NCBI GenBank assembly: GCA_045580835.1
Contig: JAZNOM010000030.1
Location: 17,162-81,161 of the forward strand
DNA length: 64,000 nucleotides
Source of the DNA: Eubacteriales bacterium
Lineage (GTDB): Bacteria; Bacillota; Clostridia; Oscillospirales; CAG-272
Direction: 5' to 3'
Below the pieces are notes generated by a model. It was not told the DNA's origin. It searched no databases and saw only the letters and a program-made list of their open reading frames with translations. This document shows, one piece after another, positions 32,456 through 39,905 of this stretch (its first letter is position 1; every line of letters begins with the position of its first letter). Made by a program: the position numbers and the translations under genes.

Positions 32456-32493
32456 AACAAGGCACCGAATGTAAAAATTCGGTGCCTTGTTTC
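32455..32493. terminator. bidirectional intrinsic terminator
   Basis: acaaggcaccgaat-gtaaaa-attcggtgccttgt. Confidence 0.8.
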
Positions 32494-33199
32494 ATATTGT
32501 GATTCTGGATTGTAGTTTTTTTATACATTCGACGGTCGGTTCGTTAAAAGATTCAAAACGAAAAGGTATTCCCAAGTTCTGATATTTTACACTGCACATT
32601 TTTTTAAATGGCAAAAGTTCAACCTTATCAATACAAGGATACATAGCAATAAGCTTATTAATAAAGTCAATGCTTTCGAAATTATCATTAAGTGTCGGAA
32701 TGATTACCTGACGAATAGTAACGGCAATTCCCTTTTTATTAAGAATACTCAAAAATTCAAGCGGCACGTTTATCGAGCAACCAACGTATTTATGATACAT
32801 TTCATCAGTTGGGTATTTTATATCAAGCAATGCTCTGTCGGTAAATTCAAGCAGATTTAAAACCTTGTCATTTATAATACTACCTGATGTATCAAGACAT
32901 GTATTAATTCCGTTTTTTCGACACAACTCAAATACTTCGCGGACGAAATTTGCTTGTAAAAGCGGCTCACCGCCTGAAATCGTTATTCCGCCTTCGTCGC
33001 CGAAATACTCACGATACCGCATAGCTTTAGCAACAATTTCGTCGGGTGAATATTCTGTTCCACCTATATCTGCCCATGTGTCGGGATTATGACAGCAACC
33101 ACATCTCAAATTACAACCTTGAGTAAAGACCACAAAGCGCACTCCCGGACCGTCCAAAGTACCCAGACTCTGAATTGAATTAACTAATCCTTTTGTCAT
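32492..33199 (-). CDS. pflA: pyruvate formate-lyase activating enzyme
   Basis: [26 protein letters not shown] radical-SAM cluster motif. Overlaps the pflB stop. Confidence 0.9.
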
Positions 33200-35427
33200 A
33201 CAGATTCATGGAATGTACGGCTGATTACCTCACGCTGCTGCTCTCTGGAAAGCTTATTAAAGTTTACGGCATAGCCTGAAACGCGAATCGTAAGATTAGG
33301 ATATGCCTCCGGATTCTCATACGCCTTCATGAGAGTTTCGCGATTAAGCACATTTACATTAATGTGATGTGCTTTCTTTGCAAAGTATCCGTCAAGAATA
33401 GTTACTAGATTTACTATTCGTTCATCTTCGCCCCTGCCAAGTGCTTCAGGAGTAATGGAGAAAGTATTTGAGATTCCATCGCGACAGTCGTCATAACTGA
33501 TTTTTGCCACAGAGTTAAGCGAAGCGAGCGCACCGTTTTCTTCGCGATTATGCATAGGATTTGCACCGGGAGCAAAAGGAGCTGCCGCCTTACGTCCGTC
33601 AGGGGTTGCCGCTGTATTCTTACCGTACATTACATTAGAAGTAATGGTAAGCACGGAGAGGGTATGCTCTGCATTTCTGTACGTGGGAGTCTTGCGAAGC
33701 TCTGTAATTACCTTGTGTGCCATATCCTTTGCTATAAGGTCTACGCGATCATCATCATTTCCGTATTTAGGGAAATCTCCGATAGTATCAAAGTCTTCTA
33801 TAAAGCCATTCTCGTTTTTGATTGGCTTAACATTTGCAAATTTAATTGCGCTGAGCGAGTCGGCAACAACCGAAAGACCTGCAATACCAAACGCCATAAA
33901 ACGACCGACACTCGTATCATGCAATGCCATTTGTGTTTTTTCGTAAGCGTATTTGTCATGCATATAATGAATTACATTCATGGTGTTTACATAGAGTTTT
34001 GAAAGCCATGCGATGTAAATATCAAAACGCTCCATTACTGTATCATAATCGAGTTTGTCGCCCTCCAAAACAGGCATTTGAGGGCCAATATGCATGCCGC
34101 TGCTGACATCATAACCGCCGTTGATAGCAATAAGTAAAAGCTTTGCGAGATTGCAACGCGCACCAAAGAACTGCATCTGCTTGCCAACTTTCATCGCTGA
34201 AACGCAGCATGCAATAGCATAATCGTCGCCGTAAATAGGACGCATTATATCATCATTTTCATACTGAATAGAGTCAGTATCCGCAGAAACCTTTGCGCAG
34301 AAGCGTTTGAAGTTCTCGGGAAGCGATTTAGACCAAAGGACGGTAAGATTGGGTTCGGGAGAAGAGCCGAGCGTATAAAGTGTATTAAGCATGCGGAAGC
34401 TATTCTTTGTTACAAGAGTTCTTCCGTCTTCACCCATACCGCCGACAGCCTCAGTTATCCACATGGGGTCTCCGCCAAACAATTCATTATATTCAGGAGT
34501 GCGTAAATGACGCGCAATACGGAGCTTCATAACAAAATCATCCATAAGTTCTTGCGCGCCTTCTTCGGTAAGAGCACCGTTTGCAATATCACGCTCAATA
34601 TAGATATCAAAGAAAGTGCTTACTCTGCCAAGTGACATTGCCGCACCGTTCTGCTCCTTAATAGCACCAAGATATCCGAAATATGTCCACTGAATAGCCT
34701 CACGCGCGTTTGATGCAGGCTCGCTTATATCAAAGCCATACATAGCAGCCATCTCTTTGAGATAACCAAGGAAAGCTATTTGCTGATAAAGTTCCTCATC
34801 CAGTCTTATCGTTTCAGCATCAAATGTACCTTTAGCAAGCGCAGCCTTATCCTTTTTCTTTTCTTCTATGAGTCTGTCTACACCATACAAGGCAACACGG
34901 CGATAGTCTCCTATAATACGACCTCTTCCGTATGCATCAGGCAAACCGGTAATAACGTGGCACTTGCGTGCAGCGCGCATTTCGTCTGTATATGCACGAA
35001 AAACGCCGTCGTTATGCGTAGTACGATAGCGGAACTCTTCCTCAACCTTGCTGCTAAGCTTATAGCCATACGCTTCGCAAGCCTGGCGAACCATTCTGAT
35101 GCCGCCAAACGGATTAGCGCCGCGCTTAAGAGGGCGATTGGTCTGCATACCTACAATTATTTCATTATCTTTATCAATATATCCCGGAGAATAGCTTGTC
35201 AGTGAAGAAACAGTTGCTGTATCAATATCAAGAACGCCACCGAATTGACGTTCAAGTGCGAACAGAGCCTCTAATTTTTTCATCATATTCTGAGTACGTA
35301 CGGTAGCACTCGCAAGAAAGCTATTATCACCTTTATATTCTTTATAGTTTTGTTGAATGAAATCACGCACATTGATTTCATCCTGCCAAACTCCATTTGC
35401 AAAACCATTCCAATTCTTGTGTTCCAT
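33196..35427 (-). CDS. pflB: formate C-acetyltransferase (pyruvate formate-lyase)
   Basis: Glycyl radical motif RVSGYAVNF and active-site CCVS. Start set at ATG 35427 (MEHKNW) after GGAGGA. Confidence 0.95.
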
Positions 35428-35460
35428 AAGTTCCTCCAAATGTTTTTGCTGTTTGCCAAT

Positions 35461-35564
35461 AAAAAAGGCAAATCAGCTTTTAATAACTGATTTGCCCAGA
35501 CGGTCGGCGTATAACCTTTACATTCCCCCGCGGTAATCCGCGAAATCCGTCAGTCATGTAAAAG
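35461..35564 (-). promoter_or_regulatory. ZTP (pfl-motif) riboswitch with terminator expression platform
   Basis: Minus strand: P1 tttacat/atgtaaa; conserved GACTGACGGA; P2 cgcgg-atta-ccgcg; 3' subdomain CCGACCGTCTGGGCA (ACGG/CCGT pseudoknot). The terminator ggcaaatcag-N10-ctgatttgcc-TTTTTT shares GGCA with the aptamer. Confidence 0.85.
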
Positions 35565-35575
35565 CTTGTACTTAA

Positions 35576-35604
35576 AGTATACACAAAAAAACGATTTTTG
35601 TCAA
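35576..35604 (-). promoter_or_regulatory. sigma-A promoter for ZTP leader/pflBA
   Basis: Minus strand TTGACA, 17 nt spacer, TATACT. Confidence 0.7.
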
Positions 35605-35667
35605 CTAAAATATGAGTACAAAATGATGGACGATATTTGTGGAATTTTGTGAAATAATAATCAATAT

Positions 35668-36372
35668 CTACTCTTTAATCTCATAACCTGCATTTAATAT
35701 TGCAGAACGCGCCAACACATATGTCGGGTCAACAAAATTTCCGACAAGACCGTATTTTTGAACCGCAAGCGGAAGCTCGGTACAACCAAGAATCACAGCC
35801 TCAGCCCCTTCGCCCGTAAGTCTTAAAAGTTCTGCGTTGACAGAGCTCACATCAAAATTATCAGCACCTGCTTTAACGCCCTTATAAATAACATCCATAA
35901 CATCCTTCTGAACATTGTCAGAAGGATAAAGCAGTTCAATTTTGTGTTTTTCGAAAACGCTGTCAAAAACCCCGGTAAATCTTGTTCCGTCAGTGGCAAG
36001 TAACACTGCTTTTTGCACAGACGAGGATTTGAGGAATTTTGCAGTTTCCTCTACAATATTTAAAACAGGGATTTGTACCATGCTAACAAGCTGATTGTAA
36101 AATCCATGTGAAGTAATACATGGTATAATCAAAAAATCAGCACCGGCTTTTTCAAGGCGGTTAGCAGACTCTACTAGATAAGGAAGCGGAGACTCGGTCC
36201 CGCGCAAAATAGCTGACGTTCTGTCAGGTATCTGCGGATTATTATCAATGATAATATGGATATGTTCAGCATCCTTATTGGCTTTGGTTAAATTTATTAT
36301 TCGCGTAAATAAATCCGCCGTAGCAAGCGGCCCCATACCGCCAATAATACCAATTGTTTTTTTATCTTTCAT
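35668..36372 (-). CDS. aspartate/glutamate racemase family protein (aspartate racemase-like)
   Basis: IGIIGGMGPLATADLF plus two catalytic Cys contexts (IIPCITSH, ILGCTELP). Confidence 0.8.
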   Translation of the reverse strand: MKDKKTIGIIGGMGPLATADLFTRIINLTKANKDAEHIHIIIDNNPQIPDRTSAILRGTESPLPYLVESANRLEKAGADFLIIPCITSHGFYNQLVSMVQIPVLNIVEETAKFLKSSSVQKAVLLATDGTRFTGVFDSVFEKHKIELLYPSDNVQKDVMDVIYKGVKAGADNFDVSSVNAELLRLTGEGAEAVILGCTELPLAVQKYGLVGNFVDPTYVLARSAILNAGYEIKE

Positions 36373-36464
36373 TAGATTTCCTACTTTTTCAACAATATAT
36401 TAGAATATTATCATAGAACTTAAAGAAAATCAATAGCAACTGATTTTTTTAAAATACACAAATA

Positions 36465-36493
36465 TTGACACTATTCTACAATTATGATACAAT
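36465..36493 (+). promoter_or_regulatory. near-consensus sigma-A promoter for DUF4062 gene
   Basis: TTGACA, 17 nt spacer, TGa-TACAAT. Confidence 0.65.
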
Positions 36494-36521
36494 TTATGTA
36501 TTAAAGTTAAGGAGAAGTGTT

Positions 36522-37538
36522 ATGGAAAAGATTTATTCTGCATTTGTTTCTTCCACCTATACCTCTCTTCGCGAAGAGCGAAACGAAGTTATCGAAACGC
36601 TGCTTGACAACAAAACTTTGCCAATTTGTATGGAACACTTTGTTGTCTCTTCAAGCGGAGCTTTTGAAGACTTAAAGAGATATATAGATGAATCTGATTA
36701 TTTCATAATGCTTTTAGGCGACGTATATGGGTCATGCGATGAGAATGGTATTTCCTGGACGGAAAGAGAATACAATTACGCGGTTGAAACCAAAAAACCT
36801 ATATTCGTTATTGAATGTAGAAAGTTTGCAGAACTTCTGAAAATGAAAGAAGCGGAACTTACAAATGACCAAATAAAACAACTTGAGTTTCATAAAAAAA
36901 TCAGTTTTATTGCACCCGTAAATGAAGAGCATTCTATTAAAGATTTACTTCACAAGTTTTTGCGAGAAAACCTTCCGCAATGCATTGGTTGGACACGTAA
37001 AAAAACTATAAATCTGCAAGAATGGCGCGAAAAGAATTTGGCATATGACCTTTCAGGTCTTTGGCATCATGTTCATTTGAGCGACGACGACTATAATTAT
37101 GTTCGTGTCGGCACAATGAAAATAGAACAAGACTTTTCTCCCGATAATTATAAATCTTTCCACATAGAGGGAGATAATTACAGTATAGTTTTCTATAACT
37201 CTGCAGAAAACAGAATCGTTGAAGACAAGATGAAAAAGTCGCATTTCTTTGGTGAGTATACTTTAGAAGATAATGGCATAATATTTGGCATATTCAATGT
37301 AAAGCGCGAGTTTAGAAGCGATTTTAATTCTTTTCAAGTAGAAAAAGGTACTCGCCGCGGAATTCATGACTTTTCTATTGAAATTTCTTCTTTAAATCAG
37401 GCTACTACAACTTTCAACGGAGAATTCCACGACGAAGCGCCTTCACCCAAGCAAGGAAGAATTTTTGTTTTCCGTGATATAAACGAAAGAAATGAGTTTT
37501 TATTAACCTACCGTGATGGTGCTTTTAATGTGAGGTAA
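36522..37538 (+). CDS. DUF4062 (TIR-like/Rossmannoid) domain protein with unassigned beta-rich C-terminal domain
   Basis: N-terminal ~100 aa match my recollection of DUF4062: AFVSSTYTSLREER...PICMEHF...DYFIMLLGDVYGS...GISWTEREYNYA...KPIFVI. The C-terminal ~170 aa are unrecognised. ATG 36522 follows AAGGAG. Confidence 0.7.
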   Translation: MEKIYSAFVSSTYTSLREERNEVIETLLDNKTLPICMEHFVVSSSGAFEDLKRYIDESDYFIMLLGDVYGSCDENGISWTEREYNYAVETKKPIFVIECRKFAELLKMKEAELTNDQIKQLEFHKKISFIAPVNEEHSIKDLLHKFLRENLPQCIGWTRKKTINLQEWREKNLAYDLSGLWHHVHLSDDDYNYVRVGTMKIEQDFSPDNYKSFHIEGDNYSIVFYNSAENRIVEDKMKKSHFFGEYTLEDNGIIFGIFNVKREFRSDFNSFQVEKGTRRGIHDFSIEISSLNQATTTFNGEFHDEAPSPKQGRIFVFRDINERNEFLLTYRDGAFNVR

Positions 37539-37543
37539 TACTA

Positions 37544-38314
37544 ATGGATTATAATAAAATCATTGATTTAGTAAAAAACGCCGGCAAATTTGTCTTTGAC
37601 AAAGACCTGAAAAGTGATGTAAGCATGAAAGGTGCTGCCGATTTTGTTACCGCTGTTGATTTAAGAATCAGCAACTATATTAAAGAGGAACTCCGAGTTT
37701 TAACACCCGAAATCGGCTTTATGAGCGAAGAAGAAGAGACCGAACTTTCTGCTAAACGCTGGATTCTTGACCCTATTGACGGAACTACTAATCTTGTATA
37801 CAACTATAATATGAGTTCTGTTTCTTTAGCGTATTTCAACGGCGAGTTCGTTGAATTTGGTGTTATATATAACCCATTTAACGGCGATCTCTTTACTGCA
37901 AAGGCTGGCGAAGGCGCTTATTTAAATGGAGAAAGACTCAATACCGCACCGGACAGAGAACTTAAAAACTGTATAATAGAATTCGGGGCTGGCTCTACTA
38001 AAAAGCAGTTTACGGACGAAAGTTTTACCATTGCACGCGAAGTTTTTAGAAACTGCTTGGACATCAGACGAATCTGCTCCTCTGCCCTTGCTATAGCGTA
38101 TGTTGCCGCAGGAAAACTTAATGGTTATTTCGAGAGAAGTATAAAACCATGGGACTATGCTGCTGCTACTCTTTTGTTAAAAGAATGTGGATGCATATGT
38201 TCTGATTGGAATGGCGCTCCTATTCAGTACGATAAGCCTTCAAGTTTTGTTTGCGGTACGCCAAAAGCGTATAATCTTATTGTAGATATAATCAATCAAT
38301 ACTCAACTAAATAA
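37544..38314 (+). CDS. inositol monophosphatase (IMPase/SuhB/CysQ) family phosphatase
   Basis: Metal and catalytic motifs are intact: SEEE, WILDPIDGTTN and WDYAAATLLLKECG. Confidence 0.85.
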   Translation: MDYNKIIDLVKNAGKFVFDKDLKSDVSMKGAADFVTAVDLRISNYIKEELRVLTPEIGFMSEEEETELSAKRWILDPIDGTTNLVYNYNMSSVSLAYFNGEFVEFGVIYNPFNGDLFTAKAGEGAYLNGERLNTAPDRELKNCIIEFGAGSTKKQFTDESFTIAREVFRNCLDIRRICSSALAIAYVAAGKLNGYFERSIKPWDYAAATLLLKECGCICSDWNGAPIQYDKPSSFVCGTPKAYNLIVDIINQYSTK

Positions 38315-38318
38315 AACT

Positions 38319-38356
38319 GAAACCGGAGCAGATTAATCTGCTCCGGTTTTTGTTTT
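38319..38356 (+). terminator. intrinsic terminator
   Basis: aaccggagcagat...atctgctccggtt followed by tttgtttt. Confidence 0.8.
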
Positions 38357-38437
38357 AATACCATTTTTTGTTTACATAAAAATTCCTTCCCTGCAGATAA
38401 TATCATTGTAAAATCAACCTTAAGGAGCGATTTATAT

Positions 38438-38989
38438 ATGAAAGCAACAGGAATTGTAAGAAGGATAGACGATCTCGGTCGTGTGGTAATACCTAAAGAA
38501 ATAAGACGCACAATGCGTATCCGTGAAGGTGACCCTCTTGAAATCTATACCGACAGAGAAGGAGAAGTAATTTTTAAGAAGTACTCTCCAATTGGTGAGC
38601 TTGTATCATTTGCAGCCCAATATGCAGATACTCTTAACAAAACTTGCGGAATGTCAGTAATTATTACCGACCGCGATGCCGTTGTAGCATGTGCAGGCGT
38701 TTCAAAAAAAGAATACACCGAAAAGAAGATTTCTGACGAAATCGAAGACATAATTGAAAGCCGAACACTCTATGTAAATAACAATAGTGAAAACAAATTC
38801 CCGGTTATTGAAGATGGTGGAAGTCATTATGTAAGCTGCGCAATGCCAATTATAAGTGAAGGAGATATTGTCGGATGCGTAGTTTCGCTAAACGCAAACG
38901 ACTCATCAAGCAACAATCTCGCAAAAGATGTGGAAACCAAGCTTATTCAAACAGCAGCATCATTTCTCGGAAAGCAACTGGAAGCATAA
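38438..38989 (+). CDS. spoVT: stage V sporulation protein T (AbrB-family regulator with GAF-like domain)
   Basis: MKATGIVRRIDDLGRVVIPKEIRRTMRIREGDPLEIY SpoVT-AbrB N-domain, ~180 aa length. Confidence 0.9.
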   Translation: MKATGIVRRIDDLGRVVIPKEIRRTMRIREGDPLEIYTDREGEVIFKKYSPIGELVSFAAQYADTLNKTCGMSVIITDRDAVVACAGVSKKEYTEKKISDEIEDIIESRTLYVNNNSENKFPVIEDGGSHYVSCAMPIISEGDIVGCVVSLNANDSSSNNLAKDVETKLIQTAASFLGKQLEA

Positions 38990-38994
38990 ATAAT

Positions 38995-39028
38995 AAAAGC
39001 AGCAGAAAACAATTCTGCTGCTTTTAAA
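38995..39028. terminator. bidirectional terminator
   Basis: aaagcagcaga-aaacaat-tctgctgcttt. Confidence 0.75.
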
Positions 39029-39029
39029 T

Positions 39030-39905
39030 CTAATCAATATCCTGAATAACTTTTTCGGGTGGAGACATAAGTGCCTCGGGGGAAGCAATAAGTTTTTTGA
39101 TAATTTTAAACGCAGAAGCATAATAAAATCCATCACAAATTCGCTCATCAGTAACAACTTTCAAATCCATCATTGTCTGTTTTTCAACAGTTCCATCATC
39201 CTTGACGGTATTGGTGTGGTATTTTTTGCCGTAAGAAACAAACAAAGGAAGATTACCAAAGTTATACAAATGATGATATATGGGAGGTATACCTAGGGAC
39301 CCCATACTTGTTATAATCATTGAACCATGGAAAGGACTTATATCAAGCAACGCCTTTGGCAGCCAACCGAAGTAATCCAAAAAATTCAAAAAACCTATAG
39401 CGACGCGGAAAATCAACCCGGGCAATTTTACGAGAGTGGAAACGACATTTTCAAAGTCGGGATTTCCCTCCTCTGCCAGCGCCTCTTTAGCCACCTTGTC
39501 AAACTTCTCATATACGTCCAGCAAAGTATCGGTGGGTTCAAAACGCACCTTTATAACAGTATCGGGCGCTTCAAGCGACATCTCTTTTTTTATAGTCATG
39601 TTAACTTCAATAGTATCGCGGTGAAAAATCTTCTGTCCCGAACAAAAACGATTGAGTCCAGGGCGTGAAGCAATCGTGCGGATATACGCTGCAAGAATAA
39701 TATGCAAAATGCTCATACTTTTATAGCCTTGTTTGCGAAGTTCCCGCATAAGTCTGTCTGCTTCTGTAATATTAACAGAATCCGCAAACATATTTTGAGC
39801 ATCATTCCTTGTGGGCATTATGTAAGGCACAACATATGACATTGGCGGTAACGTACGCACACGTCTACCTTCTTTTCTATCGCCCCATCTACGTTTATTC
39901 TTCAT
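39030..39905 (-). CDS. stand-alone 2-oxoacid dehydrogenase E2 / CAT-fold acyltransferase-like protein
   Basis: The C-terminal DERICDGFYYA corresponds to the DHRxxDG catalytic motif with His replaced by Glu. No lipoyl or E1/E3-binding domains. Confidence 0.55.
   Translation of the reverse strand: MKNKRRWGDRKEGRRVRTLPPMSYVVPYIMPTRNDAQNMFADSVNITEADRLMRELRKQGYKSMSILHIILAAYIRTIASRPGLNRFCSGQKIFHRDTIEVNMTIKKEMSLEAPDTVIKVRFEPTDTLLDVYEKFDKVAKEALAEEGNPDFENVVSTLVKLPGLIFRVAIGFLNFLDYFGWLPKALLDISPFHGSMIITSMGSLGIPPIYHHLYNFGNLPLFVSYGKKYHTNTVKDDGTVEKQTMMDLKVVTDERICDGFYYASAFKIIKKLIASPEALMSPPEKVIQDID

Follow-up and report, generated by a model that had tools for sequence, protein, structure and literature searches.

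In a 64,000-nt window of a Eubacteriales bacterium (CAG-272; assembly GCA_045580835.1, contig JAZNOM010000030.1, positions 17,162 to 81,161 of the forward strand; coordinates below are positions in this window), a gene for a DUF4062 protein, here called gene A, lies directly upstream of a gene for a phosphatase of the inositol monophosphatase (IMPase) family, here called gene B. The locus raises the question of whether the two genes work together and, if so, at what. An earlier note, made from the DNA letters, had offered two answers, either a compact nucleotide-directed module of a TIR-like protein and a small-molecule phosphatase or the insertion of a single gene in front of a housekeeping suhB, and our analysis favors the first of these in an altered form. 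The pair is a conserved unit, and its core is not the TIR-like domain but a C-terminal β-barrel of gene A together with the phosphatase.

The N-terminal domain of gene A was the most readily identified part of the pair. The product is 338 aa long, and Pfam DUF4062 (PF13271) matches residues 8-87 with an E-value of 5.7e-22 and 78.2 bits against a cut-off of 24.7, in agreement with the motif-based assignment in the earlier note. Its full-length homologues number 134, with identities of 41-98%, and among the 29 that were aligned the FVSS, CMEHF, YGS and SWTEREY motifs found in gene A are invariant or near-invariant. The AlphaFold2 structure predicted from the same 29 homologues has a predicted local distance difference test score (pLDDT) of 88.9, and a Foldseek search with its N-terminal half retrieved TIR domains (SPARTA TIR-APAZ, L6, RPS4, AbTir and SARM1) as well as nucleoside 2-deoxyribosyltransferases, all with a probability of about 1.0 and TMt values of 0.5-0.67.

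The description of DUF4062 as a recurrent module of conflict proteins can now be taken further, as three 2026 preprints, among them the preprint on the Vesta system (bioRxiv 10.64898/2026.09.04.749371), rename the domain NIR and show it to be a TIR-like effector of phage defense that hydrolyzes nicotinamide adenine dinucleotide (NAD+), i.e., an NADase. It serves the Swarozyc, Avs2, Vulcan, Vesta and Evangelion systems, where it depletes NAD+ and one glutamate is essential in each (Eva01 E87, KpSwz E97, PsAvs2 E108 and VstA E103), with an N-terminal aromatic residue represented by F11 of Eva01; every bacterial DUF4062 protein characterized so far is an anti-phage NADase. A tblastn search of plasmids with residues 1-130 of gene A found about 200 Staphylococcus aureus plasmids of the pMW2 type, and BLASTP aligned the Eva01-type DUF4062 protein of such plasmids, WP_000072392.1, to residues 5-101 of gene A with 47% identity and an E-value of 6e-28. 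The residue numbering of WP_000072392.1 agrees with the published F11 and E87-Y88 of Eva01; F11 aligns with F8 of gene A and E87-Y88 with E83-Y84. Both F8 and E83 are invariant in the 29-homologue alignment, and both are also kept in distant DUF4062 proteins of Sorangium, Prosthecobacter and Planctomycetota. As F8 and the predicted catalytic E83 are conserved, the fold is TIR-like and the core is 47% identical to an Eva01-type protein, the N-terminal domain of gene A is, as far as sequence and models can tell, a DUF4062/NIR domain with the residues that a working NADase needs. Gene A itself would be expected to hydrolyze NAD+, with E83 as the predicted catalytic residue.

The remaining 170 or so residues had been described as β-rich, opening with a GLW motif and matching nothing recognizable. 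The first two points hold, and the third gave way once this half was modeled separately. In the predicted structure of residues 160-338 (pLDDT 92.1, predicted template modeling score 0.87), eight strands form an up-and-down barrel that a helix closes, and the conserved G179-x-W181, the GLW motif, opens the barrel sequence. Its fold neighbors in the PDB are generic ligand-binding proteins of the lipocalin type, namely the designed mFAP1, nitrophorin 7, a biogenic-amine-binding protein and an odorant-binding protein, and the top fold match in BFVD is a predicted viral protein annotated as S-2TMβ (E-value 2.8e-5). Pfam DUF5640 also matches gene A weakly (E-value 0.05), which we read as a hint of a lipocalin-like fold and not as homology.

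A profile of the barrel run against 1.84 billion representative proteins retrieved 150 relatives. The DUF4062-barrel arrangement accounts for 49 of these, about 83 instead carry one to three predicted transmembrane (TM) helices in front of the barrel, and the remaining 18 are fragments or lack a recognizable N-terminal module. Two of the TM-barrel proteins (P0316 and P0350) also have an N-terminal STAND NTPase (nSTAND3), and in an 849-aa protein (P0293) a HicB-like segment comes after each of two TM-barrel units. In hhalign, the barrels joined to DUF4062 and those joined to TM helices match each other with a probability of 100% and an E-value of 1.7e-43, and polar positions H183, Y193, R195, Q203, N219, H282 and D304 are common to both classes. 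Among 30 TM-barrel relatives, 11 match the PADLOC hidden Markov model (HMM) for the "2TM effector" (two TM helices) of CBASS, with E-values down to 1.2e-6. From the model and these matches, the C-terminal domain of gene A appears to be a lipocalin-like eight-stranded barrel of the S-2TMβ/Cap15-like kind, its membership of that family being unproven, and it presumably binds a ligand.

We then turned to gene B and its relationship to the barrel. Gene B matches Pfam Inositol_P (PF00459) with an E-value of 1.3e-51. Across 129 barrel-linked sequences, fusions included, the motifs for metal binding and catalysis (EE62-63, DPIDGT76-81 and WD203-204 in gene B) show conservation of 97% or more. It scores below every NCBIfam equivalog cut-off tested (SuhB, CysQ, HisN and FBPase/IMPase), with the SuhB-type model NF008027 the best at 158.9 bits against a cut-off of 332, HisN at 103 against 275 bits and CysQ at 92.8 against 228.8, and its substrate therefore cannot be assigned by this route. 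Gene B has no alkaline-phosphatase match in Pfam or NCBIfam.

The first indication that gene B is not a housekeeping suhB came from a survey of one genome per GTDB species, which yielded 47 loci, 36 of them with a full-length gene A homologue. In all 36, an IMPase gene whose product is 53-81% identical to gene B follows directly downstream on the same strand, and no cyclase family occurs among the neighbors of these loci. Apart from the gene pair, nothing recurs in more than four of the loci, and at least 15 different flank contexts can be told apart. Looking from the other side, we took six close IMPase orthologues (73-78% identity) from contigs outside the DUF4062 hits, and all six adjoin a barrel gene, in either gene order: a DUF4062-barrel gene lies upstream in two and a TM-barrel gene upstream in one and downstream in two, while in the last the DUF4062-barrel gene has lost its N-terminus in one assembly. 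IMPases that pair with 2TM-barrel genes are 73-77% identical to gene B. For the six distinct free-standing TM-barrel genes with a readable context, an IMPase is adjacent in three and absent in three. Three proteins carry both parts in a single polypeptide of 518-565 aa in the order 2TM, barrel, IMPase: P0304 and P0331, from the TM-barrel group of the 150 relatives, with Pfam IMPase E-values of 8e-55 and 7e-51, and the product of L076:898-2595, which came from a degenerate DNA pattern scan of metagenome contigs in which 7 of 45 matches were real and the rest mostly chance.

Given the 36/36 adjacency despite differing flanks, the six barrel-linked orthologues and the fusions to the barrel, gene B is a dedicated partner of the barrel protein and not a housekeeping suhB. 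The barrel and the IMPase are the conserved core of the system, and the N-terminal output module (NADase, TM or STAND NTPase) is interchangeable. The part of the earlier proposal that treated the two genes as one module thus stands, and the suggestion that the phosphatase works on the nucleotide product of a TIR-like glycosidase becomes unlikely, as the phosphatase tracks the barrel and not the TIR-like domain. More probably gene B controls the barrel's ligand, which would then be the phosphatase's substrate. We would like to note that a NUDIX hydrolase gene (L055:4838-5353) and a HisJ-family PHP phosphoesterase gene (L057:3217-3987) lie directly beside two TM-barrel/IMPase pairs; they were considered as clues to the ligand and dropped, being not recurrent and each found in one locus type.

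Two recently described defense systems provide the closest parallels to this arrangement. Vesta, from Pseudomonas, consists of the NIR protein VstA (WP_274410426.1), whose C-terminal domain is uncharacterized and proposed to bind a ligand, and the alkaline phosphatase VstB, which is dispensable for defense and has been likened to MisB (bioRxiv 10.64898/2026.09.04.749371). Like Vesta, the present locus is an operon of two genes in which a small NIR protein carries a putative ligand-binding C-terminal domain (the VstA domain being compared by description only) and is tightly linked to a phosphatase. It differs in that the partner is an IMPase (PF00459), in that its hosts are gut anaerobes, and in having 2TM and STAND variants. 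A search for a Vesta homologue through the plasmid DUF4062 matches gave only Eva01-type proteins and other architectures, with no alkaline-phosphatase partner. In Metis types I and II, the HAD phosphatase MisB accompanies either the NAD+-degrading effector MisA or the transmembrane effector MisC, both effectors sense the mononucleotide m6dAMP, and MisB clears the basal ligand and so prevents self-toxicity (bioRxiv 10.1101/2025.11.05.686725). The likeness to Metis is one of system logic only, i.e., one phosphatase with either an NAD+-destroying or a transmembrane effector. The phosphatase here is an IMPase and not a HAD protein, the NADase is a DUF4062 glycohydrolase and not a calcineurin-like diphosphatase, and the presumed sensor is a lipocalin-like barrel in place of the PUA-like domain of MisA or the pocket of MisC; Pfam detects no PF00149, PF13419 or PUA domain in gene A or gene B.

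For the barrel, the relevant precedent is the S-2TMβ family of Cap15 (CBASS), OptE (Panoptes) and PanE (PanDA), in which the barrel has been shown experimentally to be a nucleotide receptor that controls oligomerization (PMC12657218, PMC12657230). Most homologues of the gene A barrel have the 2TM-plus-barrel layout of that family, and the barrel is of the same general build. Gene A, unlike S-2TMβ proteins, lacks the two N-terminal TM helices and carries a soluble DUF4062 NADase domain in their place, although the 2TM module has been described as "obligately fused" to the S-2TMβ barrel (PMC12657218); β-PNP is one precedent for a barrel fused to a soluble enzymatic effector. Furthermore, a cyclase of the CD-NTase, mCpol or DAC type is lacking here, and the IMPase occupies the partner position. 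With Evangelion Eva01 and Swarozyc, gene A shares the related NADase core described above and the general plan of an effector core with a C-terminal auxiliary region needed for control. In contrast to those systems, the auxiliary region here is a barrel of about 170 aa rather than a short AUX or helical stalk, and the phosphatase partner is obligate. Evangelion is a single-gene system typically borne on plasmids or mobile elements, whereas the loci found here are chromosomal, and unlike Swarozyc, which senses a portal protein, the trigger here is probably a small molecule and not a phage protein. Separately from these comparisons, a 447-aa DUF4062 protein, unrelated to the barrel family, is encoded in a Salmonella plasmid record (NZ_CP051374.1, 93768-95111; L107), its gene being inserted in a P2-like prophage region with tail/virion-morphogenesis genes on one side and baseplate genes on the other, a typical phage-carried defense hotspot.

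Taken together, these comparisons lead us to propose that genes A and B form a cyclase-free, ligand-gated abortive-infection (or broader conflict) module resembling Metis and Vesta, a reading to which we give about an even chance. Gene A would be an effector-sensor fusion whose DUF4062/NIR domain hydrolyzes NAD+ via E83 and whose Cap15/S-2TMβ-like barrel binds a small phosphorylated nucleotide-type ligand that sets the oligomeric active state of the NADase. In healthy cells, the gene B phosphomonoesterase would hydrolyze this ligand and hold the effector off, as MisB does and as has been suggested for VstB. Infection, or breakdown of the genome or of RNA, would lift the ligand beyond the capacity of the phosphatase, or the phosphatase itself would be blocked, and the barrel would become loaded. 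The loaded barrel would drive assembly and switch the NADase on, NAD+ would collapse, and the infected cell would stop supporting phage. The domain identities, conserved catalytic residues, operon layout, obligate link of barrel and IMPase, effector swapping, fusions and spread over phyla are observed, and what we infer in this scheme is that gene A acts as an NADase, that its barrel binds a ligand, which ligand this is, which way it controls the effector and that the pair acts against phage. A classical cyclic dinucleotide is an unlikely ligand because IMPase-type enzymes hydrolyze phosphomonoesters and not cyclic diesters. The swapping of effectors (NADase, 2TM, STAND NTPase) on one sensor, which is a hallmark of conflict systems, speaks for the module.

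We also examined where the pair occurs and what surrounds it. It is carried by uncultured Clostridia of the gut and rumen (Acutalibacteraceae, Oscillospiraceae and Christensenellaceae), by two metagenome-assembled genomes binned as Bacteroidaceae and by Senegalimassilia of the Actinomycetota. The Senegalimassilia IMPase shares 60% identity with that of the window, and its partner protein 30% with gene A, and since the IMPase is this similar across phyla, the pair appears from sequence to have been transferred between them as a unit. The neighbors of the Senegalimassilia pair include genes for an AAA ATPase (936 aa), an OmpA/MotB-like protein, Gln_amidase and DUF87. At the same locus, a gene (L113:7809-9941) whose 710-aa product matches nothing in Pfam or PADLOC shares 4 nt with the 3' end of the IMPase gene, and it may encode a third component. 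Decayed alleles were found as well: one locus retains a DUF4062 remnant with an internal stop, without barrel or IMPase and followed by spoVT (L035:1436-1963), in a second a deletion fuses DUF4062 residue ~89 to IMPase residue 89 (L036:9959-10751), and a third is a barrel-only ORF without the NADase domain (L110:2369-2989).

The association with defense islands proved weak rather than strong, with some TIR-STAND and other conflict genes nearby amid mostly ordinary metabolic ones. Two loci have TIR-STAND genes beside them, with TIR_2 proteins encoded at L049:1-136, L049:6815-7579 and L050:4761-7262, and these genes and the cassette may form a small defense cluster. One of the TIR_2 neighbors is an 833-aa protein with TIR, NB-ARC/AAA and TPR regions whose gene starts within the end of the IMPase gene. 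Models for CARF-PDDEXK/Csx1, MADS or DrmD/DpdE have matches in a few of the 93 immediate neighbors at the genome loci. A phage origin was considered and dropped, as IMG/VR gave no full-length relative and only one match, to the DUF4062 domain alone, and neither the barrel nor a TM-barrel protein had a tblastn match in a phage collection. We regard the pair as an accessory, horizontally mobile chromosomal cassette whose association with defense islands is modest to weak.

Several observations weigh against the module proposed above. The C-terminal domain of gene A (residues 160-338) has no significant match in Pfam, NCBIfam or PADLOC, and PADLOC and NCBIfam find nothing anywhere in the protein. 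No Cap15 or OptE entry is among the top 50 PDB fold matches of the barrel, and sequence-profile searches of the PDB with the barrel and TM-barrel alignments gave no match even at an E-value of 10. The CBASS "2TM effector" matches in the relatives span only the TM region and the first barrel strands, and the best match to Pfam Cap15_CD_rec (PF18153), in one of the 30 TM-barrel relatives, is not significant (E-value 0.12). The link to Cap15 is thus indirect, made through a fold match to a predicted viral protein and through HMM matches in relatives. The ligands of the known S-2TMβ barrels are cyclic di- or oligonucleotides. An IMPase-type phosphomonoesterase cannot open these, and the ligand class would have to differ here; no sequence feature decides whether the ligand activates or inhibits. 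Most of the 93 immediate neighbors are ordinary metabolic genes, and those in the window are all ordinary, with seven flanking genes identified by Pfam in addition to pyruvate formate-lyase (PFL), aspartate racemase and SpoVT (the full list being DHquinase, an AraC-type regulator, the PFL-activating enzyme, PFL, aspartate racemase, SpoVT, a 2-oxoacid_dh-like protein, lactonase, ComEC and IMPDH). Lastly, the conservation of the IMPase (53-81%) and the recurrence of spoVT would also fit a vertically inherited physiological function. The spoVT gene (AbrB/MazE plus SpoVT_C; window 38438-38989) occurs next to or near the cassette, on either strand, also in L004, L007, L019, L048 and L049; this could go back to ancestral synteny within one lineage or point to a link in regulation.

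A bolder form of the proposal is that the barrel-IMPase core represents a new cyclase-free branch of nucleotide-sensing immunity, in which the IMPase sets the concentration of an endogenous phosphomonoester nucleotide and Cap15-type barrels monitor it and drive interchangeable death outputs (NIR NADase, 2TM pore or STAND NTPase). We hold this only tentatively and would sooner expect it to fail than to hold. Candidate ligands would include, for example, a 3',5'-bisphosphate (pAp/pNp), a linear breakdown product of the pApA type or a modified (d)NMP. A eukaryotic parallel is the plant SAL1-PAP pathway, in which a phosphatase of the IMPase superfamily keeps 3'-phosphoadenosine 5'-phosphate low and stress leads to its accumulation and to signaling. 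The analogy extends to the ligand class only, as that pathway has another downstream target and no homologous sensor.

Of the explanations that compete with an immune module, the one that survives best, though we think it unlikely, is a physiological, non-immune pair of gut anaerobes, in which a metabolite-gated NADase (or 2TM protein) and its phosphatase would tune NAD+ or the membrane state, e.g., in stress, stationary phase or sporulation. The mostly housekeeping neighbors, the recurrence of spoVT, the strongly conserved IMPase and the lack of full-length relatives in IMG/VR and the phage collection all suit it, as does the fact that gene A and gene B have no PADLOC match. What it does not readily accommodate is the exchange of NADase, 2TM and STAND-NTPase outputs on one sensor, the transfer of the pair across phyla together with its decayed alleles, heterogeneous flanks and occasional TIR-STAND, CARF or MADS neighbors, or the anti-phage role of all characterized bacterial DUF4062 proteins.

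A somewhat less probable alternative inverts the logic of control along the lines of Panoptes or PanDA: the phosphatase would make or preserve a ligand that holds the barrel-effector as an inactive monomer, and loss of the ligand or inhibition of the IMPase would free the NADase, making the IMPase a guarded "antitoxin". OptE and PanE, studied relatives of the barrel class, are indeed inhibited by their nucleotide, their apo barrels oligomerize and their partner enzyme is constitutively active, and the tight coupling of IMPase and barrel, fusions included, would fit a toxin-antitoxin-like dependence equally well. Nevertheless, in Metis, the only studied combination of a phosphatase and a ligand-sensing effector with a known ligand, the ligand activates and the phosphatase removes it, and the Vesta phosphatase is likewise dispensable for defense.

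Quite improbable, in our view, is a sequential nucleotide metabolism in which the TIR-like domain cleaves, e.g., NAD(P)+, the IMPase dephosphorylates a product or precursor such as 2'-phospho-ADP-ribose or NADP+, and the barrel is accessory. TIR-type enzymes can use NADP+, the IMPase superfamily includes NADP phosphatases and 3'(2'),5'-bisphosphate nucleotidases, and gene B shows weak NCBIfam similarity of this sort; however, the IMPase follows the barrel and not the NADase, adjoining or being fused to 2TM-barrel proteins that have no NADase, and those adjoining 2TM-barrel genes include close relatives of gene B. The chance insertion of a DUF4062 gene upstream of a functionally unlinked, housekeeping suhB-like gene is already contradicted and hardly credible, for although gene B is most similar to SuhB-type inositol monophosphatases and its local context is housekeeping, the constant adjacency over at least 15 flank contexts, the barrel-linked orthologues, the fusions and the joint movement across phyla refute it.

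The layout of the locus is given in Table 1. The 338-aa reading of gene A with a near-consensus promoter of its own was correct in the earlier note, as were the 5-nt gap to an intact IMPase gene on the same strand and the terminator behind it. The promoter is the top-scoring site in a 3.7-kb scan (35500-39200). The true start of gene A is the ATG at 36522, which is supported by a ribosome-binding site; the automatic call of the open reading frame (36465..37538) begins at a TTG within the -35 hexamer, and annotation pipelines could over-extend the gene by 19 codons through this TTG 36465. The terminator scan of the locus found no convincing terminator between genes A and B, and the hairpin 3' of gene B is the sole strong one. 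From this layout, genes A and B are likely co-transcribed. The GC content does not flag the pair as foreign.

Table 1. Sequence features of the gene A-gene B locus, in window positions.
Feature	Position	Strand	Basis
Promoter, sigma-70-type, TTGACA-17-(TG)a-TACAAT	36465..36493	+	11/12 consensus match, extended -10 TG
Ribosome-binding site AAGGAG	36509..36514	+	7 nt 5' of ATG 36522, sequence reading
Gene A, DUF4062(NIR)-barrel protein, 338 aa	36522..37538 (stop codon included)	+	Open reading frame, ribosome-binding site, Pfam
N-terminal DUF4062/NIR TIR-like NADase domain (predicted) and helical linker, aa 1-157	36522..36992	+	PF13271, Foldseek, 47% identity to Eva01-type protein
E83 codon, predicted catalytic glutamate (SWTEREY)	36768..36770	+	Alignment with E87 of Eva01-type protein
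C-terminal eight-stranded β-barrel and closing helix, aa 172-338, putative nucleotide/ligand receptor	37035..37535	+	Structure model, fold matches, hhalign
Gene B, IMPase-family phosphatase, 256 aa	37544..38314	+	PF00459, adjacency and fusion counts
Intrinsic terminator, 14-bp stem with 7 GC pairs and T-run	38319..38350	+	dG -28.7 kcal/mol, z -10.3 vs shuffles

Upstream of the pair, on the minus strand, a ZMP/ZTP riboswitch (pfl motif, RF01750) was detected at 35487-35567 with 63.7 bits against a gathering score of 39. It lies in the leader of the PFL gene (33196-35439, minus strand), which is followed by the gene for the PFL-activating radical-SAM enzyme (32492-33199, minus strand).

The literature searched, including the three DUF4062 preprints, links no IMPase to phage defense and describes no fusion of NIR to a barrel, and searches on lipocalin-like sensor domains found no prior description. 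We rate the cassette as a phosphatase-guarded, ligand-sensing NADase/2TM effector design with a new phosphatase family and a receptor class, that of Cap15/OptE-type barrels, which had previously been described only together with cyclases. DUF4062/NIR NADases were recognized as immune effectors only in 2026, Metis and Vesta are equally recent, and the trigger of Vesta is still open; to the phosphatase-guarded design, this locus adds a third, unrelated phosphatase family. If our proposal is true, S-2TMβ-like barrels could be driven without a dedicated signal synthase, and a new signal molecule would await identification, to which the substrate of gene B, a small enzyme that is easily purified, would lead. 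Should the bolder, cyclase-free-branch form hold, it would provide a bacterial counterpart of the "phosphatase-gated" danger signaling of the SAL1-PAP type and a new ligand class for S-2TMβ barrels. The hypothesis can be tested directly, since TM-barrel-IMPase fusions exist in nature and one carrier, Senegalimassilia faecalis (partner protein WP_337368935.1), can be cultivated, and if it is borne out, abundant uncultured gut and rumen Clostridia, together with Coriobacteriia, would carry a so far unannotated immune module.

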